Positions 3,680-64,000 of a stretch of DNA of 64,000 nucleotides are shown piece after piece. The notes beneath the pieces are model-generated. The model ran no database searches, was not told where the DNA came from, and saw only the letters and a list, made by a program, of their open reading frames with translations. A program made the position numbers and the translations under genes. Origin of the DNA: a bacterium (GTDB taxonomy: Bacteria > SAR324 > JACQKK01); assembly GCA_965205845.1 (NCBI GenBank), contig CBDBIG010000003.1, positions 313,117 to 377,116 on the forward strand. Reading direction: 5' to 3'. Each line of letters opens with the position of its first letter. Position 1 is the stretch's first letter.

Positions 3680-3752
3680 GGGGTTTGGATTTGGGGGGAT
3701 TTAGCGATGGCTTTTTTTAGGGGCTTCGGGCAAGGGGTTTGGATTTGGGGGG
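3643..3752. repeat. ~55-bp tandem duplication (x2) spanning the 3' end and stop codon of the HDAC gene
   Basis: GGCGGTGGCTTTTTTTAGGGGCTTCGGGCATTAAGGGGTTTGGATTTGGGGGG is followed by GCGATGGCTTTTTTTAGGGGCTTCGGGCAAGGGGTTTGGATTTGGGGGGGG. The first copy encodes the C-terminus AVAFFRGFGH and the stop codon. Confidence 0.85.
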
Positions 3753-8525: not shown

Positions 8526-8664
8526 TCAATTTCTCCTCATCACCCCGTTAACGGATTCTTCTCAAAGGCCATCAATTACGAAATCGATTACGCCAAAATC
8601 TTTGGTCCATTATTAAATATCTTACCTGTGGTAAGGGCCTCACAAACACCATTCATCTCCTTGC

Positions 8665-8831
8665 ACCACCATGCCCCATTTGCCAATAAGTATCTTGCTT
8701 TCAACGGCTTTTACGCACGCACCACCATGCCCCATTTGCCAATAAGTATCTTGCTTTCAACGGCTTTTACGCACGCACCACCATGCCCCATTTGCCAATA
8801 AGTATCTTGCTTTCAACGGCTTTTACGCATG
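8665..8831. repeat. 55/56-bp tandem repeat x3 in the intergenic region between the two paralogous OMP genes, 140-300 bp upstream of OMP-A
   Basis: CACCACCATGCCCCATTTGCCAATAAGTATCTTGCTTTCAACGGCTTTTACGCACG occurs at 8665, 8720 and 8776. Confidence 0.9.
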
Positions 8832-8866
8832 CACTCGCAGAACACACCCGCACCCTTAAAAGGTGT

Positions 8867-11443: not shown

Positions 11444-12160
11444 TTAGCGGGTGCCGTCTATTTCGAGGGGTTTAATTAGGGTGTCATCCAAGCGTTGTGC
11501 GTGGTGCTCGTCTTGCGGGGCTGCATCATCCTCCCCAACTTCCTCGTTGTCATCCAAGCGTTGTGCGTGGTGCTCGTCTTGCGGGGCTGCATCATCCTCC
11601 CCAACTTCCTCGTGACTAAAGAGCCCATCTTGGGGCAGTTCTGGGATATCTAAAGCCTCAAGGGTGGGGAGTTCTTTTAAGGTGCTAATGCCAAACAGGC
11701 TAAAAAATTTACCTGCCACCCCGTATAGCAAAGGGCGTCCGGGGCCTTCATCGCGCCCTGTGATGCGTACCAGGCGTTTTTCTAACAAGCCACGCAAACC
11801 GTTTGAAGAATCGACTCCACGTAAATGCTCTACTTCTGCGCGGCTGACGGGCTGACGGTAGGCAATGATGGATAAAATTTCCAACGCCGCAGGGGAAAGT
11901 TTGGTGGGTTTGTAACGGCTCAGCTGGCTTAGCCATGGTTTAAACATGGGCAGTGTGCGCATTTGGTAGGCTTCGCCCACTTTGGCAATATGAAACGCGT
12001 GCTCGGCCGTGCTGTATTGTTGGTTTAGGGTTTTAACCATGGAAGCAATACGTAAAGTACCATGCGGTTTAAGCAGGCGGTTTAATGCATGGCTCGAAAC
12101 AGGGTCGGCGCTGGAAAACAAAACCGCCTCCAAGACCCTCTTTGCATCGTTGTCTTCCAT
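11444..12160 (-). CDS. scpB: Segregation and condensation protein B
   Basis: N-terminal LEAVLFSSADPVS, winged-helix region SRAEVEHLRGVDSSNGLRGLLEKRLVRITGRDEGPGRPLLYGV, and an acidic C-terminal tail. Confidence 0.8.
   Translation of the reverse strand: MEDNDAKRVLEAVLFSSADPVSSHALNRLLKPHGTLRIASMVKTLNQQYSTAEHAFHIAKVGEAYQMRTLPMFKPWLSQLSRYKPTKLSPAALEILSIIAYRQPVSRAEVEHLRGVDSSNGLRGLLEKRLVRITGRDEGPGRPLLYGVAGKFFSLFGISTLKELPTLEALDIPELPQDGLFSHEEVGEDDAAPQDEHHAQRLDDNEEVGEDDAAPQDEHHAQRLDDTLIKPLEIDGTR
11483..11614. repeat. In-frame 66-bp tandem duplication inside the scpB 3' coding region (22-aa acidic repeat EEVGEDDAAPQDEHHAQRLDD x2)
   Basis: Identical 66-bp units at 11483-11548 and 11549-11614. 66 = 22 codons, so the reading frame is preserved. 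Confidence 0.9.
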
Positions 12161-21078: not shown

Positions 21079-21329
21079 TGTCACCAAACCCTCTCGGTGA
21101 AAGGAAACGAAAAGTCCCCCAAGCACCCAAAAAACCGCCGCAGCCTTCCTTGTGGAGCAAAGGCGTGCGATTTATGGCGGTGGGTGTTGAGGTAGCCGTT
21201 GCGATTTTGCTAAGCTTATGGGTGGGTCAGTGGCTTGACATCCGCCTTGGTAGCGAGCCTTGGCTATTGTTGGGATGCATGTTGGTTGGGATGATTGCCG
21301 CGCTCCGTATTTTAATGCGTTTGCGCTAG
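21075..21329 (+). CDS. atpZ: Small 2-TM membrane protein in the atpZ/AtpI-like position at the head of the F0 ATP synthase operon
   Basis: 84 aa. It has a basic N-terminus and two hydrophobic helices (VGVEVAVAILLSLWVGQWL / LLLGCMLVGMIAALRIL). It is immediately upstream of atpI-atpB-atpE. Its 3' end is the first unit of the 87-bp array. Confidence 0.6.
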   Translation: MMSPNPLGERKRKVPQAPKKPPQPSLWSKGVRFMAVGVEVAVAILLSLWVGQWLDIRLGSEPWLLLGCMLVGMIAALRILMRLR

Positions 21330-21790
21330 GCCTGCGGTTTGCACACAGCGCAGCTATTGGGATGCGTGTTGGTTGGGATGATTGCCGCGCTCCGTATTTT
21401 AATGCGTTTGCGCTAGGCCTGCGGTTTGCACACAGCGCAGCTATTGGGATGCGTGTTGGTTGGGATGATTGCCGTGCCCCGTATTTTAATGCGTTTGCGC
21501 TAGGCCTGCGGTTTGCACACAGCGCAGCTATTGGGATGCGTGTTGGTTAGGATGGTGGCCGCGCTCCGTATTTTAATGCGTTTGCGCTAGGCCTGCGGTT
21601 TGCACACAGCGCAGCTATTGGGATGCGTGTTGGTTAGGATGGTGGCCGCGCTCCGTATTTTAATGCGTTTGCGCTAGGCCTGCGGTTTGCACACAGCGCA
21701 GCTATTGGGATGCGTGTTGGTTGGGATGGTGGCCGCGCTCCGTATTTTAATGCGTTTGCGCTAGGCCTGCGGTTTGCACACAGCGCAGCT
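21265..21790. repeat. 87-bp tandem repeat x6 that begins inside the atpZ 3' end; every unit re-creates the atpZ C-terminal codons (…GMIAALRILMRLR) and the TAG stop
   Basis: Units start at 21281, 21368, 21455, 21542, 21629 and 21716 with exact 87-bp period (87 = 29 codons). Units differ by a few SNPs (GGTTGGGATGATTGCC vs GGTTAGGATGGTGGCC). The ORF track shows the repeated peptide AIGMRVGWDDCRAPYFNAFALGLRFAHSA in another frame. Confidence 0.95.
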
Positions 21791-23404: not shown

Positions 23405-23674
23405 CCTACTGATTGCTTGGCCTTAAAGCGATGAGGGGCACATTAGGGCAAAACAACACGCTCTTTGGTTTTTCTTTAAAAGGCGGCTAAAGGGCACGTT
23501 TGGGTGGGTACGTGTCGCCAAGCGATTTGGCGGATTGCTTGTTCCTTTCGCCCCTTGCCCCCGTTTACCGGGGGTTGCTTGGCTCGTACTTTTTGATGAG
23601 GCTATTTATCAGCATATGTGCAAGCTTTTGGCTGTGATACAAGGCCTTATGTAACCAACCACTTCCGCCCAAGA

Positions 23675-23860
23675 GCGATCTCATTCAATCCCGTCGCGTT
23701 GTGTTCGCCCGTAGCCGATCAAAAACCCTTGTGAAAGCGATCTCATTCAATCCCGTCGCGTTGTGTTCGCCCGTAGCCGATCAAAAACCCTTGTGAAAGC
23801 GATCTCATTCAATCCCATCGCGTTGTGTTCGCCCGTAGCCGATCAAAAACCCTTGTGAAT
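23675..23860. repeat. 62-bp tandem repeat x3 (GCGATCTCATTCAATCCCGTCGCGTTGTGTTCGCCCGTAGCCGATCAAAAACCCTTGTGAAA)
   Basis: Units at 23675, 23737 and 23799 in the gene-free region downstream of atpE. Confidence 0.9.
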
Positions 23861-24473: not shown

Positions 24474-24593
24474 CGATTTCAAACACAGGTTCAAACACAG
24501 GTTCAAACACAGGTTCAAACACAGGTTCAAACACAGGTTCAAACACAGGTTCAAACACAGGTTCAAACACAGGTTCAAACACAGTGCCATCAA
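24474..24593. repeat. 12-bp microsatellite (CAGGTTCAAACA) x10
   Basis: Read directly. It yields the FEPV/QTQV/FKHR peptide repeats seen in three ORF-track frames. Confidence 0.95.
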
Positions 24594-24644: not shown

Positions 24645-25124
24645 CCAGCCACCTGTTCCGCAGAGCAGATTCGAAGCCACGAGCGTTTACAAATGCTGTC
24701 AACAGCCGTAAAAAAAGAGTACTTGCGTTACATGAGGCGCAATCACCGACGTGGTAGCCCTCCCATGCGCGCATCATGAAAGAAATGTGCTACACTGAGG
24801 TGTCCTACGAACAGGCTTGGTTGGCTCTGCAGCCAGTTAAGTCGTTCATCCAAGTTTTGGCCCTTTTTTTAAGTATCACATGTACCAGCCACCTGTTCCG
24901 CAGAGCAGGTTCGAAGCCACGAGCGTTTACAAATGCTGTCAACAGCCGTAAAAAAAGAGTACTTGCGTTACATGAGGCGCAATCACCGACGTGGTGGCCC
25001 TCCCATGCGCGCATAATGAAAGAAATGTGCTACACTGAGGTGTCCTACGAACAGGCTTGGTTGGCTCTGCAGCCAGTTAAGTCGTTCATCCAAGTTTTGG
25101 CCCTTTTTTAAGTATCACACGTAT
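24645..25124. repeat. 240-bp direct tandem duplication (x2), near-identical
   Basis: Unit 1 is 24645-24884 and unit 2 is 24885-25124 (CCAGCCACCTGTTCCGCAGAGCAG...GGCCCTTTTTTTAAGTATCACA). Each unit carries a sigma70-like TTTACA-N17-TAAAAA and a T-run. Confidence 0.95.
24686..24714 (+). promoter_or_regulatory. Candidate sigma70-type promoter (TTTACA - 17 bp - TAAAAA), repeated at 24926-24954 in the second 240-bp unit
   Basis: -35/-10-like hexamers with 17-bp spacer read directly. A T7 run at 24864-24870 lies about 150 nt downstream, a possible short transcript. Speculative. Confidence 0.3.
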
Positions 25125-27300: not shown

Positions 27301-27466
27301 AGAAATTTTCACATCTGCCAGCCCCGGCAATATGGGGGTGCTTTGCGTAAAAGGCATCCATGGTTGGCCTTGTCTACGTGGGGTGACTTTGCGTAAAGAG
27401 GCCCTGTGGTTGGGCTTTACTGCTCTATGGCAGTGCTCAACGCGCTGGGGCTGACTTGCCACAAGC

Positions 27467-27658
27467 AACGCTGAGGTGCACATTGTTGTAAACCGTGTTT
27501 GAAAGAGGGGCGCTCGATTGAAACCATGCTGTTTGACCGCGAACAACTCCCTTGCATTAAGCAACGCTGAGGTGCACATTGTTGTAAACCGTGTTTGAAA
27601 GAGGGGCGCTCGATTGAAACCATGCTGTTTGACCGCGAACAACTCCCTTGCATTGGCG
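27467..27658. repeat. 96-bp tandem duplication (x2) covering the RBS, start codon and first 11 codons of rimM
   Basis: Units at 27467-27562 and 27563-27658. Copy 1 contains ATGCTGTTTGACCGCGAACAACTCCCTTGCATT and runs into TGA, giving the decoy ORF MLFDREQLPCIKQR. Copy 2 is the real rimM start at 27622. Confidence 0.9.
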
Positions 27659-30559: not shown

Positions 30560-30990
30560 CAACGACAAGAACCATTTTACAACCACACCCCAGCAAGGTC
30601 GCTAAACCAGCATCGCCCCATGCAAAGGTGGAACGCACAAAGCACGGCGACAAGAACCATTTTACAACCACACCGCAGCAAGGTCGCTAAACCAGCATGA
30701 CCCCATGCAAAGGTGGAACGCACAAAGCACGGCGACAAAAACCATTTTACAACCACACCCCAGCAAGGTCGCTAAACCAGCATCGCCCCATGCAAAGGTG
30801 GAACGCACAAAGCACGGCGACAAAAACCATTTTACAACCACACCCCAGCAAGGTCGCTAAACCAGCATCGCCCCATGCAAAGGTGGAACGCACAAAAGCA
30901 CGGCGACAAAAACCATTTTACAACCACACCCCAGCAAGGTCGCTAAACCAGCATCGCCCCATGCAAAGGTGGAACGCACAAAAGCACAGC
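30560..30990. repeat. 85/86-bp tandem repeat x5 between the gamma-CA-like gene and nfeD
   Basis: Marker ACCATTTTACAACCACACC occurs at 30571, 30656, 30741, 30826 and 30912. The units encode nothing recognisable. Confidence 0.9.
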
Positions 30991-31574: not shown

Positions 31575-32426
31575 ATGTTTTTTTATCGCATCCCCCAAGC
31601 CCATGTGATGGTGGTTGAACGCTTGGGTAAATTTCACCGCATTTGCCAGCCTGGTTTAAGGGTACTTTTGCCCATACTCGATTACCCCAAAGAAATGCCC
31701 GAATGGGAAGGGCGTGGAGTACGCTTAGTGGGCAGCCGTCCTATTTTGGTGGAGCTGGCAGAGCAATCTTTAGGGACAGAACCACGTGCGAGCATTACCC
31801 GCGACAACGTGCAGCTGCGTGTTGACACGCTTATTTATTGGCAGGTTACCGATGTGATGCGTGCCGTGTATGAAGTAGATGTGCTGCCCAATGCCATTTT
31901 GGATCTTACCCTGACCACCTTGCGCTCGGTAATTGGCAGCATGAACATGGATGAGGCCATTAGCAACCGCCTAAAAATTAACGACGCTGTGCAAACCGAG
32001 CTTCAAGGTGCGGTGGAAAAATGGGGGGTGCGGGTCAACCGTGTGGAAATTCAAGAACTGCATGCCTCGGATGAAGCCTCTGCGGCAATGCTGAAACAAA
32101 TGACCGCTGAGCGTGAAAAACGCGCAGCCGTTACCGAAGCCGAAGGGAAAAAAGCCGCCGCTATTTTAGAGGCAGAAGGCTATCGCGAGGCGGTGCTCAT
32201 CCGTTCAAAGGCGGATGCGGATGCCATGAAGGAGTTTGCCCGTGGGGAAGCAGAATTTCTAAAACCACTCCACCAAGTGCTGGGAGAAAAGAACGGAATG
32301 AATTTTGCTCTCGCTGCAAAATACCTCCGCACCCTTGGCAGCATGGATGAAACAGCCAAGGTGTTTTTGCCCTTAAACCTGGCTGAAGCCATTGATACGG
32401 TTTTACGCGGCACGGGCAAAAAATAA
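31575..32426 (+). CDS. SPFH/band-7 (stomatin-like) protein
   Basis: VVERLGKFHRICQPGLRVLLPILD, a band-7 core, and a Glu/Ala-rich coiled-coil tail. Canonical nfeD-SPFH pair. Confidence 0.85.
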   Translation: MFFYRIPQAHVMVVERLGKFHRICQPGLRVLLPILDYPKEMPEWEGRGVRLVGSRPILVELAEQSLGTEPRASITRDNVQLRVDTLIYWQVTDVMRAVYEVDVLPNAILDLTLTTLRSVIGSMNMDEAISNRLKINDAVQTELQGAVEKWGVRVNRVEIQELHASDEASAAMLKQMTAEREKRAAVTEAEGKKAAAILEAEGYREAVLIRSKADADAMKEFARGEAEFLKPLHQVLGEKNGMNFALAAKYLRTLGSMDETAKVFLPLNLAEAIDTVLRGTGKK

Positions 32427-32831
32427 GGGCATTTGCAAAAGTGGTTGCTTTTAAGCAATCTTGCAAGCCTCATTCAAGCATTGTTATAGACGCGGCACGG
32501 GCAAAAAATAAGGGCATTTGCAAAAGCAGTTGCTTTTAAGCAATCTTGCAAACCTCATTCAAGCATTGTTATAGACGCGGCACGGGCAAAAAATAAGGGC
32601 ATTTGCAAAAGCAGTTGCTTTTAAGCAATCTTGCAAGCCTCATTCAAGCATTGTTATAGACGCGGCACGGGCAAAAAATAAGGGCATTTGCAAAAGCAGT
32701 TGCTTTTAAGCAATCTTGCAAGCCTCATTCAAGCATTGTTATAGACGCGGCACGGGCAAAAAATAAGGGCATTTGCAAAAGCAGTTGCTTTTAAGCAATC
32801 TTGCAAACCTCATTCAAGCATTGAATAGAAA
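32407..32831. repeat. 85-bp tandem repeat x5 that starts inside the SPFH gene 3' end (includes the TAA stop) and fills the whole intergenic space up to the next start codon
   Basis: GCGGCACGGGCAAAAAATAAGGGC marker at 32407, 32492, 32577, 32662 and 32747 with exact 85-bp period. The first unit encodes …LRGTGKK-stop. Confidence 0.95.
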
Positions 32832-33425: not shown

Positions 33426-33502
33426 AAAATACGCCCAAGATTAGAAAAAATCGCCCAAAAAATATCCAAAAAGGCAAAGCCATAGCGCTCTTTTTAAAAA
33501 AA

Positions 33503-35709: not shown

Positions 35710-36594
35710 ATGGTGACACCCCCCCCTTGCCTTACCAACGCAGATACACCCCAAAAAACGCGTCAACTGCTGGGTGAGCGGCTGCAAACGTTTGTACCCA
35801 GGCCCCCACCCTATCCGCTGATTATGGGCATTATCAACGTCACCCCAAACTCGTTTAGCGATGGTGGCGACCTACCCCAGCTCGAGGATGTGCTCCGTCG
35901 GGCAGGCACCTTAAAGGGCGAAGGGGCAGATATTTTAGATGTAGGTGGGGCGTCCTCACATCCCAATGCCCCCCATACCCCAATTAAAGTGGAATTACAG
36001 CGCGTTGTGCCCGTGGTGAAAACCCTACACCAGCAAGGATTGGGACCTATTTCAATCGATACCCAACACCCTGCTGTCGCGCAGCAATGCCTGCACGCAG
36101 GGGCGCACCTAATCAACGATGTAAGCGGCCTTTGCACCACCCAAACCCCCAACGCTGATATGGCCGCGATCGCTGCTCAATTTGGAGCGCCGCTGGTGAT
36201 CACCTGCAACCATTTGAACCAACCCCCTCCCCCCAACACGCCTTTGTTAGAAGGGATGCTCCATTTTTTTAAGCAGCGCATTACCGCCGCCAAAAAGCAC
36301 GGGGCGACCCAACTTATTTTGGATCCTGGGTATGGTTTTGGCAAAAGCCTGCCCCAAAACTTGCAAACTTTGCGCGAACTTTCAAGTTTAATCCCTTTGG
36401 GTTACCCTATTTTAACCTGCACTTCGCGCAAAGGTTCCCTTGGCAAGTTAAGCGCAGAACCCAAACCAAAGGAACGCCTAGGTGCCGGTTTGGCAAGTGC
36501 ATTCTTTGCGCTGAAACAAGGGGCTAGCATTGTGCGTACCCATGATGTAAAACCCTTGCACCAGTTCGTTCATCTATGGCACACTTTGCGGTGA
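35710..36594 (+). CDS. folP: Dihydropteroate synthase
   Basis: IMGIINVTPNSFSDGGD (the DHPS N-terminal motif), DILDVGG, and GASIVRTHDV (C-terminal motif). The start is uncertain (ORF-track ATG at 35653; a later ATG at 35710 was used). Confidence 0.85.
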   Translation: MVTPPPCLTNADTPQKTRQLLGERLQTFVPRPPPYPLIMGIINVTPNSFSDGGDLPQLEDVLRRAGTLKGEGADILDVGGASSHPNAPHTPIKVELQRVVPVVKTLHQQGLGPISIDTQHPAVAQQCLHAGAHLINDVSGLCTTQTPNADMAAIAAQFGAPLVITCNHLNQPPPPNTPLLEGMLHFFKQRITAAKKHGATQLILDPGYGFGKSLPQNLQTLRELSSLIPLGYPILTCTSRKGSLGKLSAEPKPKERLGAGLASAFFALKQGASIVRTHDVKPLHQFVHLWHTLR

Positions 36595-37240
36595 CCCGCG
36601 CACAACATAGGCTAGGCAACACCTTATATAAATTTTTTTGTTTTTATGGCGTAAAAAAATTAAAGCATCGTTATTGCGCTTTTTGTATGTGATGTTTTGC
36701 GCAAGGCTTGGGCGTTGGCGGCTTGGCCACTGTACGCGCGTTTTCTCACATCATTTCAAAATACAGTCAATTAAGAAGCACGCAAGCCTGCTTGCCGCCG
36801 ATATTTCCTTGCGCAAAACACGCCTTTTTACGGCAGCCGAAAAGCGTGAGGTAAAACGCTTGCAACAAGCAAAGGCGCGCGTTGTGCGGACCCATGATGC
36901 TAAAACCCTTGCACCAGTTCGTTCATCTATGGAACCCCTTACGATGACCCACGCACAATTTGGCTATGAGCAGGACCTTAAATGAACTTTTTTTGGTTTT
37001 TATGGCGTAAAGAAATCAAAGCCTCGTTATTGCGCTTTTTGTTTGTGATGTTTTGCGCAGGCTTGGGCGTTGGCGGTTTAGCCACTGTACGCGCGTTTTC
37101 TCACACCATTCAAAATACGGTCAATCAAGAAGCACGCAGCCTGCTTGCCGCCGATATTTCCTTGCGCAAAACGCGCCCTTTTACGGCAGCCGAAAAGCGT
37201 GAGGTAAAACGCTTGCAACAAGCAGGGGCGCGCGTTGTGC
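36530..37240. repeat. ~355-bp tandem duplication spanning the folP 3' end, the intergenic spacer and the first ~85 codons of the downstream FtsX-permease gene
   Basis: Unit 1 is about 36530-36885 and unit 2 about 36886-37240. GTGCG[GT]ACCCATGATG...CACCAGTTCGTTCATCTATGG..., TTTTTATGGCGTAAA[AG]AAATCAAAG...CGCTTTTTGT[AT]TGTGATGTTTTGCGCA...GCCACTGTACGCGCGTTTTCTCACA...CGCTTGCAACAAGCA. About 93% identity. The junction lies at the short homology TTGTGC. Confidence 0.9.
36638..36985 (+). pseudogene. Chimeric ORF created by the 355-bp duplication: N-terminal 80 aa of the FtsX-permease fused to a diverged copy of the FolP C-terminus
   Basis: MFLWRKKIKASLLRFLYVMFCARLG...LLAADISLRKTRLFTAAEKREVKRLQQAKARVVRTHDAKTLAPV. 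Compare the real gene MNFFWFLWRKEIKASLLRFLFVMFCAGLG...LLAADISLRKTRPFTAAEKREVKRLQQAGARVVQ and the FolP end VRTHDVKPLHQFVHLWHTLR. Confidence 0.6.
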
Positions 37241-43497: not shown

Positions 43498-46400
43498 TTT
43501 AAAAAAATGCCTTCTTGGGTATTTTCTGAGTCACCAAGATGGCTTTTTTTGGGTGTGCCCAGGGGGCCTTCTTTGGCTTTTATGCGGCAAAAAGCCGTAA
43601 AATCGCAATACTCGCAGGCGTCGTCTTGAGGATCGACCTGCGCTGCCCCTCGAGAAAATTGTTTCACGCTTTTTTCAAATGCCTGTTGCCAACGTGCCAA
43701 CAGTGCTGGCTGTGTAGGCCATGGGTTTTTACCCCAGGTGCTTACTTTGTTGCCAAACAAACTGTCTTTGAATGTGACCTCACTCAAGCCAATCATCTCC
43801 ATGCCTTTGCGGTGCAGTTTGGCAAAAGCAAGTGCCATCAGGGGTTTTTGCTGCTGCGCTGGCTGTTGTGCTTGTTTTTGGAGCCAGGCCAAGGCATAAA
43901 GGGGCAGTTGGGGTTGGGTAATGCGTTCCTCGTTCTGCCATGAATGAAGGGGCAGTGTTTCTCCCGTTTTATAGTCCAGCAACACGGCAGCCTCAACCGC
44001 TTCTTGTGCATTCGATTCAAGGCTGCATTCTACGTAGTCCAAGCGGTCGAGACGTAGGCTTAAGGGCAAGCCAACCACGCTAAAGTCCAGTTTTTCCTCT
44101 TGCTTGCCTACACAAAAATCGCCCCTTTCCATGGCTTCTTTTTCCAACCATGCTGTGAGCAAACGGGTGATACGTTTGCCTTCCAAGCGTGCGGCGGCGG
44201 GAGAAAGCATCACGGTTTTTTTGCTTGCCTGTGCTTCGCTCGGTTTAGCTTGTGCTGCGGGGTCTGCGGGGTCTGCGGGGTCTGCGGGGTCTGCGGGGTC
44301 TGCGGGGTCTGCGGGGTCTGCGGGGTCTGCGGGGTCTGCGGGGTTGCTTACGCGAATAACACGCCCAATGGTGCGTTCCAAGGCTTGCTTAAAAGCCAAA
44401 GGTTTGGCAAGGAGGGCTCGTAATTCGCTTTGGCTTTGGGCCGCATCGTGCCAAAAAATTTCCAACACCCAGTGCACAATATTGCCTCGGGTCAGTGCGT
44501 CCAAACCTGTTTGCGCAAGGGTTTTTTTTTGGAGCATCAGGCGGTGCCTTGCAAAACTGCGAAAAGGGCAGAGCGCAATATCTTGGAGCAAACTTGCACC
44601 ACCCTTTAGGGTAGACACATCAATGGGCGGCCCGTTGGAATCGGGGCATGACTGCCAAGGCGAATGGCTTTGGGCATGGTCCAACATGGCCATCCATGCC
44701 GTGTGGGGGGGTGTCGGCATGGCACCTTTGGTGACGATAGGAGGGGGGGTGATGGTTTGCAGCAAGGAGCTGGGTCTGCGCTCCTCTTCGCTATCTAACT
44801 GCTGGGTTGCGTGGCTAATAACCACCTGCTTGGCGCTATGCAACAAGCGCGTCAGGCTCATTTTTCCCAGTGCAAGTTCACGGGCAGCACTTGAGCGTGG
44901 CATCTGATGGTCGCGTTGAAAAGCAAGGGGTAGCAAAGCATGCGGCATGGGCGGGGGAGGCCAGTGTTGATCATCAAAGCCCAACACCCATAGGTGGTCA
45001 AAAAAGAGACCGCTAGCCTGCCATGGTCCTAAAATATGGAGGCTTGCTTCGAATCCCTCGGCTTGAAAGGGGGTTTCTGCAACGATCCGTTGTAACCATG
45101 CAAACGCTTGGTTTGCAGACCATAGGTTCGTCGTTTGTGTATTTTGGATTCCATCGAGGGTGGAAAATACCTGCAACGCCTTTAAAAATCTCTTTTTTGC
45201 CTGTGCCTCGGTACTGTTAAGACCGCCCTCGGTTTGGCTCCCGTTTTTGGAAAAACCCAAGGTCCAACCCGCTGTGTGCAACAGGTTTAAAAAAAAATGC
45301 GCCCATTGCGAGGGCATTTTGTGCGTTGTTTGGGCCAATTGCCACGCATTTTTCCAAGCTTGCATTGGTTGGCACCATGTCTGCAGTTCTACCCCCGAAC
45401 GTTGCGCTTGTTGCAGCACATGGCGCACTGAAAACGGCTCAACCCAGGTGGCCAAAAAACGATGCGCAAACCGTGCACGCGGAATGCGTTCGGCGGTGGC
45501 ACCCACAATAAATGGGCTTGTAACCCACTGCACAAAATGCTTGGCACTGCGTGCAACCAAAGGGGATTGCAACAAGAGCAAGGCCGCTTGGACCAACCCT
45601 TGCTCGCTGAGTGGTGGTGCATAGGAAAGGTTAAAGGGCTTGGCTGCACCTGCCTCGGTTGCATGGGTAATCAGGGTTTTGATGGGGGATAAATACTGTG
45701 TACAGACCGTGTGCACCCGTTGCCATTCTTCTTGCAGATTGGGGTGGATAATCGCAATTTTTTGCTTTGGGTTTTTTTGGGATAAGTCACGTGCCCAAAG
45801 CAGTGCTCCCTCTAATTCCTTTTGCGAGTTTGAATACGGATGCACGGTAGGAGGGTTTGCCAACGGCGGTGGTGCTTGCCTTTGGGGTTGTGGCTCGGCT
45901 TGGGCGCGGGGTAGGGCAAGCCAAGTGCTAGCTGGCACGTTCACGGGGACCCACTCCACCACCACTTGTAGAGTACGCAATGCATCAAACAACCGCTCTT
46001 GCTGCGGGGTCAAGACATCAAACCCGCAGAGCACCATGTTGGTGGGCAACATAAACCCAAAGCCTTGGGTACTACCTTGTTCTCCAAGGTAATGTTCCCT
46101 TTCCAAAGCATGCACCACCAAACTGGCTACCTGTTCTTGACTACACCACCCTTGGGTATGCATTGCTTGCCCAAAAGCCAATGCCCAATTGACAAAAACC
46201 TTGGCTTCCAATTGCAACGTATGGGCAAAGGCTTCCTTTGCATGGGGCTGTAAAAACGCTCCTATGGTGGTATTCCAGCCCACAACATGCCACTCGCATA
46301 GCAAACCCCATGCTTGCTGTGCCAAGGCAGCGGCTTTGGCTGGTGTTAAGGGCTTATGAGTCGTCGTTGGGTTATGCAGGGGTGTTGTGCGGGAATTACG

Positions 46401-46691: not shown

Positions 46692-46846
46692 CTGTTTTGT
46701 TCCATTGTTTTAAAAAGAGCTGCTCTTTTTTGCACACGTATCCCCATCTTTAAAATCTCACAAACGAAGTACAAGTGCCATGAGAACGATGGCTTGTTAT
46801 CGGCATAACCCTTGTGGCTATCGCAATTTAAATCGGTCTGATAGGG

Positions 46847-47062
46847 CACAAAGCCAAACGCACCTTGATTCTCGCGCTCAAGGATTTTCTTTTCTGCATG
46901 CCAGCGTCCAAGTTTTATCCCATTTTTCCCTGCGCTGCTTCCTTGTGCACAAAGCCAAACGCACCTTGATTCTCGCGCTCAGGGATTTTCTTTTCTGCAT
47001 GCCAGCGTCCAAATTTTGTCCCATTTTTCCCTGCTTCGGGTTCCTTGTGCACAAAGCCAAAC
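46847..47062. repeat. 101-bp tandem duplication (x2, bounded by a 13-bp direct repeat CACAAAGCCAAAC) covering the thyX 3' end, stop codon and downstream
   Basis: Units at 46861-46960 and 46961-47062 have a few SNPs and one small indel. This makes the ThyX C-terminus FGFVHKEPEAGK...GAFGFVHKEAAQGKMG-stop with FGFVHKE twice. 101 is not a multiple of 3, so the copies are read in different frames. Confidence 0.9.
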
Positions 47063-57499: not shown

Positions 57500-57778
57500 C
57501 CCGCCTTTGTGCTGCTCCTTGTCGTTTTGCTATTTTTGGGTGTTCTCTGCTGAGACTCTCAATGCTTGAGATACAACAAACATGGCGTAAAGTAAATCCA
57601 ATGTTTTCTTTGGCAAGGTTTGTAAAAGGGTGTACGAAAGTGCTCAGGGATGGCTATAGGGAGAGAAAATCTGAGGCTTGAGAAGCCACCCCCAAGCTTT
57701 TCCGCAGCATTTTTGTTATTAAGGGTCTCGAAGCCCTTGTTCGAAGCGCACTCTGCTCTCAAACCCTTTATAGTGTTA

Positions 57779-57788
57779 GGGGGGGGGG
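57779..57788. repeat. G10 homopolymer in the efp upstream / flgL downstream intergenic region
   Basis: TTAGGGGGGGGGGAATAAG read directly. Confidence 0.9.
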
Positions 57789-57860
57789 AATAAGCCATCG
57801 TTACCCTGACAGGGCCACGTTCCCTTTTGTTGTTGAGAGGCAAGACGGGAGGGTTTTTGC

Positions 57861-59111
57861 TTAGCGCAGAAAGTCGAGCAAACTGGGGGCTAACAAGCGC
57901 TCCCCCGTGTGCAGTACCGAGCGGTATTTGGTTTCTGCCGTGTTCAAATCAATCGAGGCATCGGCCACGTCCAAATCTTCTACCACCGAGATGCGCTGGG
58001 TGTTTAAAAATTCGCGATCGTCCATGGTTTGCAGGCGGTCTTGCAAGGTTTTGCTCACTATCCCCACATCAGAGCGCCGCAGAAATGCTCGATTTAAGGC
58101 GCGGTCAATCTCTCCCAAGCGCGCACTCAAAGTTTTGCCATCATCGCTTTTTAGTGCCTCGATGAGGCCTTTTAGCAAAGTGAACGTATCGCCATCATCC
58201 TCTTTTGCGCCATCGCTTTTTTGAGGCCAAAAAATTTCTGGAGCGGTCAGGTTGATTGCCCTCGTTTTGCCGTCTCCAATGGGTGCCAAGCGTTTGGCAT
58301 CATCCCCTACATAGGTCAGGTAGGGATTAGGTTGTACCTTAAACATCAGCCCCTCGTCAAAAAACATTTGCGTGTTCGACACACTGCCCTCAAAGCGCAT
58401 TTGTGTTTTTTCGCTGGGCAAGCCGTGAGGATTCACCAGCTCAATCACAGGGCGTAACAATTGCTCTCGACTAAAGGTTTTGCCACCATCGTCGGATACC
58501 ACAAAATGCGCCTCACCAAAGCCACCCTCCTTGACCACCCGTACTTCATATTCGCGATTAAAATGCCCCTCTACATCGACCACCATGCTCTGCTTGCCCA
58601 ACGCCAAGGCAGCTTGCGTGGTTAAGCCACCCCCATCAATGGTGGCTTGGGTTACCTCTGGGTTTTTCACCAAAGGTGGTTTAAGCGTACTGCTTCCCGC
58701 AAATAGGTGTACTTTGCCAAGGCGGTTATTGCCTATATCTATCAGGGATCTCAAAATATCCTCGAGTTCATTGGCAGCCAATCTGCGCGTTTCTGCATCG
58801 AAGGTATCGTTGGCATGGGTAATCACAATGCCTTTGGCACGGTTAAGCAATTCTGCCGATTGTTGTAGTTCTTGCTCGGTCCGATCAAGCCACACGTAGT
58901 TGTCTTGGACGGCGCGTTTCACCGCTTGGGCATGGGAGACGCGGGTACGGTGGTCTTGTACTTGAGCAGCACCGATTGGGTCATCTGAATAGCGATTGAT
59001 ACGCCGTCCGCTGCTCAATTTCTCTTGAATTTCTTGCAAACGCCCGCTGGAATTTTGCAAATTGCGTACCGTTTCTCCGTGGCGCGTTGTGTCTGATACA
59101 CGCATAAGCAA
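57861..59111 (-). CDS. flgL: Flagellar hook-associated protein 3 (HAP3)
   Basis: Flagellin-like N-terminus MLMRVSDTTRHGETVRNLQNSSGRLQEIQEKLSSGRRINRYSDDPIGAA, and a C-terminal helical region. Follows flgK. Confidence 0.8.
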   Translation of the reverse strand: MLMRVSDTTRHGETVRNLQNSSGRLQEIQEKLSSGRRINRYSDDPIGAAQVQDHRTRVSHAQAVKRAVQDNYVWLDRTEQELQQSAELLNRAKGIVITHANDTFDAETRRLAANELEDILRSLIDIGNNRLGKVHLFAGSSTLKPPLVKNPEVTQATIDGGGLTTQAALALGKQSMVVDVEGHFNREYEVRVVKEGGFGEAHFVVSDDGGKTFSREQLLRPVIELVNPHGLPSEKTQMRFEGSVSNTQMFFDEGLMFKVQPNPYLTYVGDDAKRLAPIGDGKTRAINLTAPEIFWPQKSDGAKEDDGDTFTLLKGLIEALKSDDGKTLSARLGEIDRALNRAFLRRSDVGIVSKTLQDRLQTMDDREFLNTQRISVVEDLDVADASIDLNTAETKYRSVLHTGERLLAPSLLDFLR

Positions 59112-59179: not shown

Positions 59180-60871
59180 TTACAGGTCAAGCACCGTTTG
59201 GGTCATTTCATTCACCGTGTTTAAAAACTTTGCAGAAGCCTCAAAACCCCGTTGATGCTGCACCATGGCGGCCAACTCCTCATCGGTATTCACCCCCGAA
59301 ACCTCGTTACGCAGTTTTTGAAACTGGTCGACGATTAAGCGGTGGTTTTCTGCCTCTTGTTGTACGCGATCAATCTCTAAGCCAAGGTCAATCAAACTGC
59401 CATTGTAGTATTCATCCAAGGTGCTGGTTTGCTGGTTTAGCAGGTTCGAAAACTGGAGTTGATGAATTCCCAAAGCGACAGAATTGTCCCCTGGCTTAAG
59501 GCGTTGGCCCGTGGTAACCTGTTGGGGGTTGTTGACAATATCTGGGTTGAGGCTAAAATTTTTGGCCCCTCCGCTGCTGTGAAAAAAACCATTTAGCCCC
59601 AAAGCCACGCTAAAATCGCTTTCATCGGGTCCCAGCACAAAATGCTCCCCGGGGGCTGCTTGCAACTGCACCCGCCCTTGGGAATCAATCTCGGCCATTA
59701 GGTGGCCACCTGCCAGTTGGTTAATCCGGGTTACCACATCTTCGACGCTGTCTTTGCCCGCGTGTACGGGAATTTCGAGGGTATTGCGGATGGTTTCGCC
59801 ATCGGGGCTGGTAAATTGGACGCGAAACATGCCATCACGCAAAAAGGGAGCGGGGTTATCCTGCCATAAATGTCCCATCTCTGCTGCCCCTTGCAGGCTT
59901 TCAAAACGATGGAGCAGGCCCGTGCCTGGGTTGTGCAAACGGTTTACCTCATACATTAGGGTGTCCGCCAGGGTGTTGAGTTCATCGAGCGCTTTGGAAG
60001 CCGTTTTATCACGCACCTCCACCATGTGGTGCAATGCGCCGCTTTTAAGCGTATAGGTTAAATTGTGTGGCGGGCCAGAGGATTGCAGCCCGTGAATTTG
60101 CATGCTGGCTGCGCTTTTAAATTCTGCGGGTGCAAGATGCAGCCTTGATGATACCCCGCCGTTAACCAGAGGAAATCCGTTGCCAATGCTTACATTGAGC
60201 ATCTTTTTATTATCCTCGACCCATTTCACCTCCACAATGCGGGAAAGTTCTTTGAGGGCTTTTTCGCGCGCATCGCGCAGATCGTTGGCCTCACCACGCA
60301 ACCGATCTACCCGTGAAATTTGCCTGTTGAGTTCGGCAATTTTGTTCGCCTTTTGGTTGACCTCATGAATGCTTTGGCTTAAGCGTTCATTAAAATCTCC
60401 GCGCAAGGTTTCAATGCTGTTGTGCAAACCGCCCATGCGCTCTGCCAAAGCCTCGCCTTTTTGCAACACATCGCGCCGATGAATTTCTTGCTCGGGGTTG
60501 TTGGCCAAACCCGACCACGAACCCCAAAATGCGTTTAAAGCCTCGCGCAGGCCATTGCCCTCAATCTCGGCAAACAAGCTTTCCAAAGCACGCAAGCCTT
60601 GTTGGCGTACCCCAAGGCCAGCATCGGTTGATTGCTCTGCAATCAGCCGTTTGTTCACAAAATTGTCGCGTACCTGGGCTACCCGCTCCACATCCACCCC
60701 GCCACCTAACAAATTGCGGGTAGGGTGCTTGGCGGCGTATTCCACCCTTTGGCGTGAGTAGTTTTCATCTTCCGCATTGGCGATGTTATGCCCAGCCGTT
60801 TGCATGCCCGACTGCTGCACTTGCATGGCGCGTGCGCCAAGGCTTAGCTGAGAAAACAATGAACTCGTCAT
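59180..60871 (-). CDS. flgK: Flagellar hook-associated protein 1 (HAP1)
   Basis: MTSSLFSQLSLGARAMQVQQSGMQTAGHNIANAEDENYSRQRVE (FlgK N-terminal rod/hook-family motif), and the C-terminal ...QRGFEASAKFLNTVNEMTQTVLDL. Confidence 0.88.
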   Translation of the reverse strand: MTSSLFSQLSLGARAMQVQQSGMQTAGHNIANAEDENYSRQRVEYAAKHPTRNLLGGGVDVERVAQVRDNFVNKRLIAEQSTDAGLGVRQQGLRALESLFAEIEGNGLREALNAFWGSWSGLANNPEQEIHRRDVLQKGEALAERMGGLHNSIETLRGDFNERLSQSIHEVNQKANKIAELNRQISRVDRLRGEANDLRDAREKALKELSRIVEVKWVEDNKKMLNVSIGNGFPLVNGGVSSRLHLAPAEFKSAASMQIHGLQSSGPPHNLTYTLKSGALHHMVEVRDKTASKALDELNTLADTLMYEVNRLHNPGTGLLHRFESLQGAAEMGHLWQDNPAPFLRDGMFRVQFTSPDGETIRNTLEIPVHAGKDSVEDVVTRINQLAGGHLMAEIDSQGRVQLQAAPGEHFVLGPDESDFSVALGLNGFFHSSGGAKNFSLNPDIVNNPQQVTTGQRLKPGDNSVALGIHQLQFSNLLNQQTSTLDEYYNGSLIDLGLEIDRVQQEAENHRLIVDQFQKLRNEVSGVNTDEELAAMVQHQRGFEASAKFLNTVNEMTQTVLDL

Positions 60872-61077
60872 AAGGGGCCACGGTTATGGGTAAAAAAGGA
60901 ATCTGCAATAGGATTTTTAAACGCGCACACCATGCATCAATTCGGGGTCCATGGCTTGCATCAAGGTGGGTACAAGGGCTGTTTTTTTATTAAGAGGATG
61001 ACCACCCACCTCATTAAAAAGGGTATTTGAACACGGCATTCCCCAGTTCCCATTACGCGGTTCTTGTACGGAACAAT

Positions 61078-61112
61078 GCAAAAAGGGCGCAAAAAGGGCG
61101 CAAAAAGGCGCA
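61078..61112. repeat. 11-bp repeat GCAAAAAGGGC x3 (phased A5 tracts) about 210-240 bp upstream of flgK
   Basis: GCAAAAAGGGCGCAAAAAGGGCGCAAAAAGGCGCA read directly. Same unit as the array at 62955-63020. Confidence 0.9.
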
Positions 61113-61303
61113 TTTTGTTGCTCTGGCGGGTAAAGCATCTGAGATGTGATAACAAAGAAACAAAAACCAACGCGCCAAGGCGCGATGCCAGGGGTGTATG
61201 GGCTGAACAAGGGCCGTTTGTTGCCAATACATGCTGAAATCTGGCGTGACTAAACACAACTGTGATCCCCCAAAAGTTTTTGCACTTTTGTAAGTTGCAC
61301 GTT

Positions 61304-61837
61304 TTAAACCGATTTGCTGGTAAAATGCATGGTGCGCTGGGCCAGACGGCCTGCACCGGAGTAAGTGGTGTGCAGTTTGGCTGCCTCGCAAATAACATGC
61401 AAGGTCGCATCCATGGCCTGCAAACGGGCTTTGGCGTTGCGTGCCGTGTGCGCTGCCATGCGTTGAATATCTTGTGCTTGTTGTCTTAGCTTTTGATGCA
61501 ACGGCAAAAAAGCGTCCGCGTTTTCAGCAGCAGCGCAGTTTGCCAAGTCTTTTAGGCATGGCGGACTATTGCTCACCCCCCATTGGGTGCCCAATTCGAT
61601 GGCACACGCAACAAGTGCTTTCTCAACATCTTGTACTTCCACAGCCATACGCGACTTGCGCTGTTGGAGGCGGGTAAAATCGGTAGCATTCAGTTTTCCA
61701 TCATTTTCCAGTTCGTAAGCCAATGCTTTTTCCATGGCAACCAGGGTCTTTTCCAATTTGCGCAACAACCCCAGCATGGCCTGGGCACTGCCTTCGCCGC
61801 GTCCTAACGATGTGGGTTCATTGGCTAAAGAAGGCAT
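61304..61837 (-). CDS. flgN: Putative flagellar export chaperone FlgN-like protein
   Basis: 177-aa helical protein between flgM and flgK (the canonical flgN position), with LEKTLVAMEKALAYELENDGKLNATDFTRLQQRKSRMAVEVQDVEKAL. Mainly a positional call. Confidence 0.4.
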   Translation of the reverse strand: MPSLANEPTSLGRGEGSAQAMLGLLRKLEKTLVAMEKALAYELENDGKLNATDFTRLQQRKSRMAVEVQDVEKALVACAIELGTQWGVSNSPPCLKDLANCAAAENADAFLPLHQKLRQQAQDIQRMAAHTARNAKARLQAMDATLHVICEAAKLHTTYSGAGRLAQRTMHFTSKSV

Positions 61838-61928
61838 ACGTAAAAAAACCAGCGAGCCCGTTTGCCTTGTTCAAGCATAAGGGAGGGGGTTGGGGGAAAA
61901 AAAGGGAGGGGGCCTCCTTAGAAAGCCA

Positions 61929-62234
61929 TTACAAGCGCTCGTGAATCGCTTCTGCAACCAGTTTGTCGGCCACCGCGTTGGCATTGACTTGGTAAGTGCC
62001 TGCTTGAATCTCGGCACGCAGGGTTTCCACTTTTTTCATGTCGACATCCGGTGTGTCGGCAATTGCCTGCTTTAGTTTGTGCACGGTTAAGGCTGGGCGT
62101 GCCTGACCTTGCAAGCCCTGAGGGGCTTTACGAAAGGGGCTAGTATCTTTTTTTACCTGAAACTCACCTGCGCCACGGCTTTTTGCATGGCGCGTTTCTG
62201 GCGAAATATGAGGGGTGCTGGGATCAACCTTCAT
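61929..62234 (-). CDS. flgM: Anti-sigma-28 factor FlgM
   Basis: 101 aa. C-terminal KLKQAIADTPDVDMKKVETLRAEIQAGTYQVNANAVADKLV matches the FlgM sigma28-binding helices (…IK.AI……VD..KV..LK..I..G.Y.VD…IA.KL). Confidence 0.75.
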   Translation of the reverse strand: MKVDPSTPHISPETRHAKSRGAGEFQVKKDTSPFRKAPQGLQGQARPALTVHKLKQAIADTPDVDMKKVETLRAEIQAGTYQVNANAVADKLVAEAIHERL

Positions 62235-62455
62235 GGTAAACTCCTATAGATAGAGGCAGTCAGTGGTTTTGTGTGTGGGTGTTTGTTTTAAAATACGGCT
62301 TGCGTGTTTTAACAATGGGTATCAAGCGGTGTTTATCAAGTGACAACGCAGTGCCAAGCAAACAGCCATCACCCGCCATCATGCTACCTTATTTAAACCC
62401 TTGATGCCCAGCGTGTTCTGCCTTGCAGGGCCCGCGTCTCAGCCCTTCGTTTTGC

Positions 62456-62878
62456 TTAAGGGATCACGGGTGCCCCTTTACTGGGTGCAAGGGCCGCTTT
62501 TTCAGTATAAGGATTTTTGCTGCCTTGATGAACTGCGGCGCGCTCTGCTAGGGGCTCGTATTTTTTAAGCGATTGCAGTAAATTTTCCGTAAAACCGAGA
62601 CCCCCGTTTTCACCAATTAAGCGCACGTACTCCGTGTCAAGCATTTCGGTAAACCATTCTTGGCTGGTGGTTTTGCCAAATAGATCCGACTTTGGGGTGG
62701 CTTTGCGCATCGAGCGCACCATCATCTCGGTCAGCATATTCTCAAATTCTTGCGCTGCCTTGCGTAACTTCACCATATCTTGCGCTTTGTTGGCTTCTGC
62801 TGCTGCACTTTGGGTTTGTGCAAGCTGGTGTTGCTTGCGTGGCAGGCTTGCGTAGTCTGGAATAATATTGAGTGCCAT
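62456..62878 (-). CDS. flgJ: Flagellar rod-binding protein FlgJ (N-terminal Rod_binding domain only; no muramidase domain)
   Basis: AAQEFENMLTEMMVRSMRKATPKSDLFGKTTSQEWFTEMLDTEYVRLIGENGGLGFTENLLQSLKK matches the Rod_binding family consensus. Start set at MALNIIPDY (62878). The ORF-track start is 62926. Confidence 0.75.
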   Translation of the reverse strand: MALNIIPDYASLPRKQHQLAQTQSAAAEANKAQDMVKLRKAAQEFENMLTEMMVRSMRKATPKSDLFGKTTSQEWFTEMLDTEYVRLIGENGGLGFTENLLQSLKKYEPLAERAAVHQGSKNPYTEKAALAPSKGAPVIP

Positions 62879-62954
62879 TTTTTTTAAAAACCTAACCCTT
62901 CGTTGTAAAAGCAGGTGGCAAGTCAAGGGAGACTGACTATCAGCCCACTATAAT

Positions 62955-63020
62955 GCAAGAAGGGTGCAAGAAGGGTGCAAAAAGGGCGCAAAAAGGGCGC
63001 AAAAAGGGCGCAAAAAGGGC
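62955..63020. repeat. 11-bp repeat x6 (GCAAGAAGGGT x2 + GCAAAAAGGGC x4), helically phased A-tracts immediately upstream of flgJ-flgM
   Basis: TGCAAGAAGGGTGCAAGAAGGGTGCAAAAAGGGCGCAAAAAGGGCGCAAAAAGGGCGCAAAAAGGGCACAAGG read directly. The 11-bp period is about one helical turn. Confidence 0.9.
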
Positions 63021-63246
63021 ACAAGGCAAAGCATTAAAAAGAGAGAGCATGTCAGACTAGGCACTTTACAAGCCTTGGCTCTAAACCCTTGCAGTGCGAA
63101 GTGGGGGTAGGCCCGTATGACAGCAAGGAGTGTGGCGTAAACCCCAAGGGTCTCCTCTTGCGTGGCTGAGTGATAAGGGGAAGGAAAAAGGGTTTTTCCT
63201 TTAAAAAAAAACGGCTGATGGCTTTTTTAAAAAAGGGTGTTCTTTC

Positions 63247-64000
63247 CTAGCGAATCTCCAATTCTGCATGCAAAGCCCCAGCATTTTTGATGCCGCGCAG
63301 TATTTGCACCAAATCTGCTGGCGAAGCCCCAATGCGATTCAGGCCTTCGACCACCTCTTTTAGGTCGACCTCCCCTTTAAACAGGGCAATCCCGCGCTTT
63401 GTTGGGTCCCCAAGGGCACTCCCAGGCTCGGCGTTGGCTCCATTACTGTTTTCAGGACCCACTTCAATGCGAATACCCCCCTGGGAAATGGCCACGGGTG
63501 CGATGCGCACATGCTGACCCATCACAATCGAGCCCGCACGTTCATCAATAATTACTTTGGCAACAAAGTCGGGTTCCACCTCCAAATTTTCAATTCGTGA
63601 AAGCAACTCCACAGTACGCCCTAAATAACTATCGGGCACAGAGATTTCAACAGAACCTGCATCTTTGGCTTGGGCTGAACCTTCACCCAAAGCGCGATTC
63701 ACCGCCTTGGCCAAACGATAGGCTGTGGTAAAATCGCTTTGCTTAAGGTTAATGTACACGCGGGTGCGGGTGTTTAAATTGAGGTTGATTTCGCGCTCAA
63801 CCAGTGCACCGCTGGGCACGTGGCCTTTTGTAGCCACCAGGCTTGAGCGCGAATCGAGGCGGGTGCGGGTGTCTGTACTGGTGTCCAAATCGCGCCGTAA
63901 CCCTTGTGGAATACCCGATATGGTCCCTTGTGCAATGGCATATACCTGCTGGTTGGTGGCACTTAAAGGGGTTAGCATCAGCGTCCCCCCACGCAAGGAG
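63247..64000 (-). CDS. flgI: Flagellar P-ring protein FlgI, C-terminal ~250 aa (5' end beyond window)
   Basis: …VAKVIIDERAGSIVMGQHVRIAPVAISQGGIRIEVGP... and the C-terminal GASPADLVQILRGIKNAGALHAELEIR match the FlgI C-terminal consensus. The ORF is open to the window edge. Confidence 0.85.
   Translation of the reverse strand, partial: SLRGGTLMLTPLSATNQQVYAIAQGTISGIPQGLRRDLDTSTDTRTRLDSRSSLVATKGHVPSGALVEREINLNLNTRTRVYINLKQSDFTTAYRLAKAVNRALGEGSAQAKDAGSVEISVPDSYLGRTVELLSRIENLEVEPDFVAKVIIDERAGSIVMGQHVRIAPVAISQGGIRIEVGPENSNGANAEPGSALGDPTKRGIALFKGEVDLKEVVEGLNRIGASPADLVQILRGIKNAGALHAELEIR

Follow-up and report, generated by a model that had tools for sequence, protein, structure and literature searches.

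Curved DNA lying upstream of bacterial promoters has been described in classical work. Pho-box-type operators show a periodicity of exactly 11 bp and often occur in multiples, and in sigma54 promoters the first G of the GG doublet is almost invariant. Sigma54 promoters can be assisted by integration host factor (IHF) or by intrinsic bends, each A4/T4 run accounting for about 18 degrees (PMC2709558), and they are enriched at flgK- and flgL-type genes across many bacterial classes (PMC12316311); TTGCAT was selected in vitro as the optimal -12 box of Pseudomonas putida sigma54 (PMC11997794). AT-rich upstream elements boost flagellar promoters of Bacillus subtilis (PMC4495994), while promoter-proximal T-tract repeats of Helicobacter pylori sabA tune output through DNA shape and the axial alignment of UP-like elements (PMC4081817). 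The 64,000-nt stretch analyzed here (hereafter the window; contig CBDBIG010000003.1 of assembly GCA_965205845.1, positions 313,117 to 377,116, GTDB lineage SAR324, JACQKK01) harbored two tandem arrays of an 11-bp unit in its flagellar cluster, array 1 in the flgN-flgK spacer and array 2 in the flgI-flgJ spacer, each with a bipartite core, TTGC(A/G)C-N5-TTGCAT, at its gene-proximal end. With moderate confidence, we propose one internal promoter for flgJ(-M-N) and another for flgK(-L), both composed of this -24/-12-like core and of a static bend upstream, the arrays being the repeat-built bend of this genome. Judged from sequence, the conserved feature is the core together with phased T-tracts upstream of it, and the arrays would be a recent, dispensable way to make such tracts.

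The window was compared with one close relative (contig L005), with a 694-bp contig (L011) and with four distant relatives (L006, L008, L009 and L010), the cores being compared in two to three genomes. FlgK of the close relative was 79% identical to that of the window, and the best named matches (about 44-48%) came from metagenome-assembled genomes (MAGs) labelled Lambdaproteobacteria, SAR324 or Deltaproteobacteria. When the orthologous spacers from the window and the close relative were aligned globally, the result was uninformative (about 63% forced identity), and the flgJ and flgK cores were the only significant local matches between them (Table 1), with aligned blocks TTGCACCCTT[C/A]TTGCATT before flgJ and TTTTTGCGC[C/T]CTTTTTGCAT before flgK. 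In the window, the gene-proximal ends of the arrays (62969-62953 and 61092-61076, minus strand) were the only places with the pattern TTGC-N7-TTGCAT, and in the close relative it occurred only at 2700-2716 (before flgJ) and 4878-4894 (before flgK), on the gene strand. An 18-mer derived from the window, with up to two mismatches allowed, retrieved exactly these two sites of the relative (0.01 expected). Each core keeps its own subtype in both genomes, and the two sites were therefore already distinct in the common ancestor. The 694-bp contig, whose FlgJ is 61% identical, starts with GTTTTTGCAT, 96-105 bp upstream of flgJ, and is cut exactly there.

If C62955 and C61078 are read as position -12 of the flgJ and flgK cores, transcription in the window would start near 62943 and near 61066, with leaders of about 65 and 195 nt, respectively; the same reading gives leaders of about 123 nt (flgJ) and 48 nt (flgK) in the close relative. 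Both arrays adjoin a conserved promoter-like core, which would precede the start codons by 65-195 nt. The shared unit had initially been taken for a common cis element of flgK and flgJ/flgM, a view that is supported for the conserved 17-20-bp bipartite core but not for the arrays themselves. No 11-bp arrays were found in the close relative. An apparent enrichment of the looser pattern TTGC-N7-TTGC in the window (25 occurrences, 1.9 in mononucleotide shuffles) was discarded as an artefact, because TTGC is a very common tetramer and a distance of 11 is no commoner than other distances.

Curvature was predicted with a dinucleotide wedge model (Bolshoy-Trifonov angles) and with an independent A-tract vector-sum model. 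Under the wedge model the arrays reached the 99.96th and 99.98th percentiles of local curvature in the window and ranked 2nd and 4th among its 60-bp segments, with a net deflection of 73-85 degrees, while under the vector-sum model they ranked 1st and 2nd (about 70 degrees). Both models place the arrays in the top 0.05% of the window, with a net bend of about 70-85 degrees, and the intrinsic curvature predicted in the initial annotation was thus upheld, both arrays being among the top four segments. Control arrays built from the variant unit or set out of phase were straight under the wedge model.

The curvature claim was strengthened by its recurrence, without repeats, at the same two positions in the close relative. 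There, the segments just upstream of the two cores ranked 1st and 2nd-3rd of 16.5 kb under the wedge model, and 1st to 3rd under the vector-sum model at 10.5 bp per turn (lower at 11.0). The T-runs of both genomes lie in matching helical register relative to the core (Table 1). The register is kept and the sequence between the runs is not, which points to a DNA-shape constraint rather than to base-specific or RNA readout. The most curved predicted segment of the whole window (33430-33475) was a non-repetitive A6/A6/A5 series in phase, in the spacer upstream of open reading frame (ORF) 33503, and phased A-tracts are thus not restricted to the flagellar cluster.

Both arrays were confirmed by Tandem Repeats Finder (TRF), with a composition differing from the three and six uniform units first described (61078-61112 and 62955-63020). 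Array 1 comprises two exact units and one 10-bp unit lacking one G. Array 2, read on the gene strand, comprises four copies of GCCCTTTTTGC (62977-63020) followed by two of ACCCTTCTTGC (62955-62976), with a partial unit at the distal end. The two flgJ-proximal units correspond to the variant GCAAGAAGGGT, in which the A-tract is interrupted, and array 2 therefore has four phased A5 tracts, not the six initially counted; array 1 has three, and the spacing is 11 bp. Both arrays carry at least three A/T tracts of at least 4-5 bp without a TpA step, spaced near the helical repeat (10-11 bp). Rather than GC dinucleotides 12 nt apart, as first read on the gene strand, TTGC recurs every 11 nt.

The exact 11-mer occurred six times in the window (61078, 61089, 62977, 62988, 62999 and 63010), always inside the arrays, in agreement with the two locations originally reported. 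With up to one mismatch, 17 matches were obtained, compared with 6.6 +/- 2.4 in shuffled sequences, none of 100 shuffles reaching 17. The start codon of the flgJ-like gene is ATG 62878 and not TTG 62926, as the alignment with the homologue of the close relative (74% identity) begins at MALNIIP; array 2 is therefore located 77-146 bp upstream of the gene, not at the nearer 30-95 bp given before. The flgK start codon (ATG 60871) is found 207-241 bp downstream of array 1.

Two tandem units (22-mer) were also searched for in public genome and metagenome contigs, where four plus one matches were obtained, none in a recognisable flagellar context. These five matches outside the window belonged to unrelated organisms (Clostridia, Luteolibacter, Verrucomicrobia, Planctomycetota and a soil contig), at non-flagellar sites, and the 11-bp unit itself is therefore not a flagellar signature. 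Arrays of five to six units of nearly the same A5 unit, (G/A)CAAAAAGGGC, were observed in Verrucomicrobia/Planctomycetota MAGs (L003 2414-2468, also L004 at about 375-450), with no recognisable flagellar gene; these near-identical arrays may reflect an independent origin of phased A-tract repeats. Two small plus-strand ORFs running over the arrays of the window (40 and 48 aa) were rejected as coding, because the 11-bp period is out of frame; they had no conserved counterpart in the spacers of the close relative.

The close relative has the same gene order as the window and similarly long spacers, while the four distant relatives share a compact flgF-G-A-H-I-J-M-N-K-L-csrA-fliW cluster with gaps of only 9-22 bp between flgI and flgJ and 45-129 bp between flgN and flgK (n=4). 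Only in the lineage of the window and its close relative, therefore, are flgJ and flgK preceded by long spacers. In all four distant relatives a sigma28-type promoter lies directly upstream of flgM, right after the flgJ stop codon, most clearly in L006 (TCAAGTTC-N11-GCCGATAA), which also displayed TGGCAT-N5-TTGCT upstream of flgF. No convincing equivalent was found upstream of flgM in the window (62235-62455), where the best match had three mismatches.

In the close relative, two duplications (2183-2388, 107 bp x 1.9, and 6561-6911, 88 bp x 4.0; 97-100% identical) repeat the final parts of flgI and flgK together with their stop codons. These 3'-end duplications account for much of its long spacers, and those of the window were probably made by the same tandem-duplication process. 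A stretch of about 30 bp, CTGGCGGGCTGTGGCACTTTGGGTTTTT, is also duplicated upstream of the flgK core of the relative (4768-4800 and 4832-4862); it includes TGGCAC-N5 without a -12 GC and aligns loosely with the hairpin region of the window at 61171-61195. A protein search with the FlgK N-terminus returned no match.

The core differs by a single mismatch from the sigma54 consensus TGGCAC-N5-TTGCW, a closer likeness than the loose one initially suggested, yet the mismatch falls on the near-invariant GG. The -13/-12 GC within TTGCW and the exact spacing are present, with TTGCAT in all four cores of the window and the close relative and in the 694-bp contig. The core is here described as -24/-12-like and, as the mismatch hits the near-invariant doublet in all four copies, is not filed as a sigma54 promoter. 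A scan for sigma28 (FliA) promoters of the form TAAA-N15-GCCGATAA gave no acceptable match near either array, a sigma70 scan (TTGACA, 16-18 nt, TATAAT) gave none on the gene strand of either spacer, and no shared -10 element was seen downstream of the four cores. We infer both the promoter role of the core and the type of sigma factor that would read it.

Compared with sigma54 promoters (glnAp2 and nifLA, and the flagellar class III promoters of Vibrio, Pseudomonas, Campylobacter and Caulobacter), the two sites share the 11-bp spacing, the TTGCAT -12 element and the C-A-C following the -24 G, as well as the location before flgK-type genes and a bend directly upstream. They differ in having T at -25 in all four copies, in having no enhancer site, activator gene or rpoN seen in the window, and in a bend that overlaps or abuts the core instead of lying at about -50 to -70 between enhancer and core. 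Curved or UP-like elements of B. subtilis hag, fliD and motA are alike in displaying phased A/T tracts on one helix face upstream of a flagellar core, where they are expected to stimulate polymerase binding (PMC4495994); here, by contrast, the tracts stem from an exact 11-bp repeat that copies part of the core, this core is of neither the sigma28/sigmaD nor the sigma70 type, and its activity is presumed. The H. pylori sabA T-tract is likewise a slippage-prone repeat beside a promoter, and both local DNA shape and the way in which upstream elements align depend on its length; it is a mononucleotide run, whereas the unit found here, known from one assembly, spans a full helical turn, and changes in copy number would keep phase and add bend rather than rotation.

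The arrays probably arose when the upstream half of a core was amplified in tandem, likely by replication slippage or unequal exchange, an expansion that would be young and lineage-specific. TTGC is present in both halves of the core, 11 bp apart, and the core is therefore readily expanded by 11-bp slippage. In local alignment, the units of array 1 and the four distal ones of array 2 were 100% identical over 32 nt, which points either to copying from one site to the other, possible for two sites 1.9 kb apart, or to a related ancestral motif that was amplified at each of them in parallel. In the close relative, the flgJ site shows TCCCTTTTTAC at about -57. With a T5 run in each unit and a unit length of about one helical turn, the T-tracts (A-tracts on the opposite strand) would all lie on the same side of the helix, at about the positions listed for the window in Table 1, and would produce a static bend of about 70-85 degrees directly upstream of the core. 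This bend, or the phased narrow minor grooves offered to polymerase alpha subunits or to a nucleoid protein, may aid polymerase recruitment or activator contact and would thereby affect expression from two internal flagellar promoters, one serving the flgJ-flgM-flgN group and the other the flgK-flgL group. An 11-bp unit keeps the upstream DNA in rotational register, and expansions would therefore be tolerated or useful at a promoter. The close relative lacks the arrays, which are therefore dispensable, lineage-specific expansions not needed for the role of the core; they would be one way, not the sole way, to build a bent architecture.

The arrays might instead be neutral slippage products, tolerated as an 11-bp unit spares the helical register, with only the core, or nothing, functional. 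Tandem duplications are very frequent in the window, where about 15 near-perfect arrays with periods of 9-353 bp, among 41 TRF rows, cover about 3.9 kb (about 6%), as well as in the close relative, which is similarly repeat-rich and has cores without arrays; such duplication evidently occurs readily in this lineage, and the copies of the unit are 100% identical and hence young. Neutrality nevertheless appears possible but doubtful, given that the close relative keeps non-repetitive T-runs in register as its most curved segments, which argues for a selected geometry, and that both arrays keep the core intact at their proximal end. A multi-site operator is also conceivable, in which TTGC(A/G)C hexamers 11 bp apart would be bound by a direct-repeat binder (e.g., a winged helix of the OmpR/PhoB type) and curvature would be incidental. 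The hexamer-N5-hexamer direct repeat is kept at both loci in two genomes, resembling in its 11-bp periodicity the Pho-box-type operators of the OmpR/PhoB family, which are sometimes multiple, and the missing GG speaks against sigma54. However, neither a recognisable -10 element nor anything resembling a sigma70 or sigma28 promoter was found downstream of the four cores, no cognate regulator gene was found in the window, and upstream of the core the T-runs of the relative keep phase but not the hexamer, which fits shape over base readout; such an operator is improbable.

Perfect tandem units in a promoter-proximal position, together with the H. pylori precedent (PMC4081817), would also suit a copy-number rheostat or contingency locus, where the number of units varies and each step alters promoter strength or the distance to an upstream site, giving reversible heritable variation of late genes. 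Each 11-bp step entails a rotational drift of only about 17 degrees, so a small effect is expected per step, and with short arrays (3 and 6 units) known from a single assembly of the species this role seems quite improbable. An action at the RNA level, very improbable in our view, would have the pyrimidine-rich repeats pair, in the flgI read-through mRNA, with the purine-rich flgJ initiation region and modulate translation. Region 63019-62870 folds at -39.2 kcal/mol (-29.5 +/- 3.2 in shuffles, z = -3.05), pairing ACCCUUC with GAAGGGU and U5 with the A-run before AUG, and a weaker analogous pairing is possible in the close relative. Its fold is not significant there (z = -0.56), though, and nothing comparable was obtained for flgK; the arrays alone are predicted unstructured (z = -1.15 and -0.23), a search against Rfam gave no match at E<=1, and a helical phasing of 10.5-11 bp kept without sequence is a property of DNA. 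Finally, TTGC-N7-TTGCAT could define a -24/-12 class of the lineage's own, read by a divergent sigma54 or a flagella-dedicated paralogue, with built-in curvature in place of IHF, slippage-made overlapping promoters and a copy number tuning the rod-cap and hook-junction genes, although we consider this elaborate version unlikely to hold.

Several observations weigh against internal promoters built from a -24/-12-like core and a static bend. The GG of sigma54 promoters at -25/-24 is replaced by T at -25 and G at -24 in four of four cores, neither rpoN nor an enhancer-binding protein gene was found in the 64-kb window (which holds housekeeping genes), and local alignment between the window and the close relative revealed no conserved upstream activator site in the spacers. 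The curvature is predicted, and other loci of the window (about 33450, 13712 and 52028) are similarly curved in the models, making the arrays extreme but not unique. At flgK the conserved core itself includes the two proximal T-runs and thus contributes part of the curvature conserved in the relative. The arrays could be neutral in view of the share of tandem repeats in the window, they are absent from the close relative, and the comparison base amounts to only two to three genomes.

The surrounding genes and signals are listed in Table 1. The terminator-like hairpin past the flgN stop codon, loosely alignable with the close relative, would part flgN from a flgK transcription unit. Between the end of flgM and the beginning of flgN (61905-61917, minus strand) there is a second terminator-like hairpin, GGAGGCCCCCTCC with CTTTTTTT after it, a hint that flgM and flgN are perhaps not simply co-transcribed. 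A degenerate 24-bp tandem duplication (71% identical) is located in the presumed flgK leader at 60933-60980, and this leader is about 150 nt longer in the window than in the close relative. The motif CCCTTTTT occurs on the gene strand six times outside the arrays in the 6-kb flagellar cluster and five times in the other 58 kb, mostly in spacers (just past the stop codons of flgI and flgM and within the flgK leader), and it is also present in the flgI-flgJ and flgM-flgN spacers of the close relative. Neither csrA nor fliW follows flgL in the window (57500-57860), where efp, a class II tRNA-synthetase-like gene, yebC, ruvC and ruvA are encoded, unlike the close relative and all four distant relatives, which display the flgL-csrA-fliW order. 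The tandem repeats of the window are mostly intergenic, some being in frame within ORFs (periods 9, 54 and 66) and some lying over the 3' ends of genes, and the genes around them are ordinary housekeeping ones.

Table 1. Position of the arrays, cores, T-runs, genes and other features in the window and, where stated, in its relatives (coordinates of the window unless a contig is named).
Feature	Position	Strand	Details
Array 1	61078-61112	- (gene strand)	flgN-flgK spacer; period 11, 3.3 copies, consensus GCAAAAAGGGC (TRF)
Array 2	62955-63024	- (gene strand)	flgI-flgJ spacer; period 11, 6.4 copies, consensus GCAAAAAGGGC (TRF)
Core upstream of flgJ	62952-62969	-	TTGCAC-CCTTC-TTGCAT(T); 18 nt, 94%, E 7e-4, local alignment of window and L005
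Core upstream of flgK	61076-61095	-	TTTTTGCGC-CCTTT-TTGCAT; 20 nt, 95%, E 3e-5, local alignment of window and L005
T-run centres, window flgJ	-38, -49, -60, -71		relative to core
T-run centres, window flgK	-16, -27, -38		relative to core
T-run centres, L005 flgJ	-37.5, -46, -57		relative to core
T-run centres, L005 flgK	-16, -27, -38, -47		relative to core
flgI, 3' part	63247-64000	-	PF02119 (Pfam); runs off window
flgJ-like rod-binding gene	62456-62878	-	PF10135 (Pfam); FlgJ N-terminal type, first gene downstream of array 2
flgM	61929-62234	-	PF04316 (Pfam); anti-sigma-28 factor
flgN	61304-61837	-	PF05130 (Pfam)
flgK	59180-60871	-	PF22638 + PF06429 (Pfam); first gene downstream of array 1
flgL	57861-59111	-	PF00669 (Pfam)
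Terminator-like GC hairpin and T-run	61171-61184	-	about 120 nt past flgN stop, about 60 nt upstream of array 1
CCCTTTTT sites	59129, 59841, 61016, 61899, 63185, 63230	-	mostly spacers
Sigma28-type promoter, TAAAGTTT-N11-GCCGATAA-like	L006 8790-8817; flgJ-flgM spacers of L008, L009, L010		canonical
Near-perfect tandem repeats	2368-2476, 3637-3752, 8663-8834, 11482-11613, 21270-21790, 23674-23859, 24478-24584, 24645-25123, 27463-27654, 30563-30987, 32405-32823, 36530-37240, 44255-44344, 46846-47062		90-100% identical, mostly 97-100%

Curved DNA upstream of promoters being long established, the gain from this locus is a case study and not a new concept. If the proposed architecture is true, it would be a clear natural example of a promoter architecture arising from tandem duplication, with in-phase T-tracts in the correct register. 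It would also offer a first starting point for understanding how flagellar genes are regulated in an uncultured lineage with ties to SAR324/Lambdaproteobacteria, where an ancestral compact flgF-to-flgL cluster, with one sigma54-like and one sigma28 promoter, would have been broken up by long spacers harboring new internal signals.

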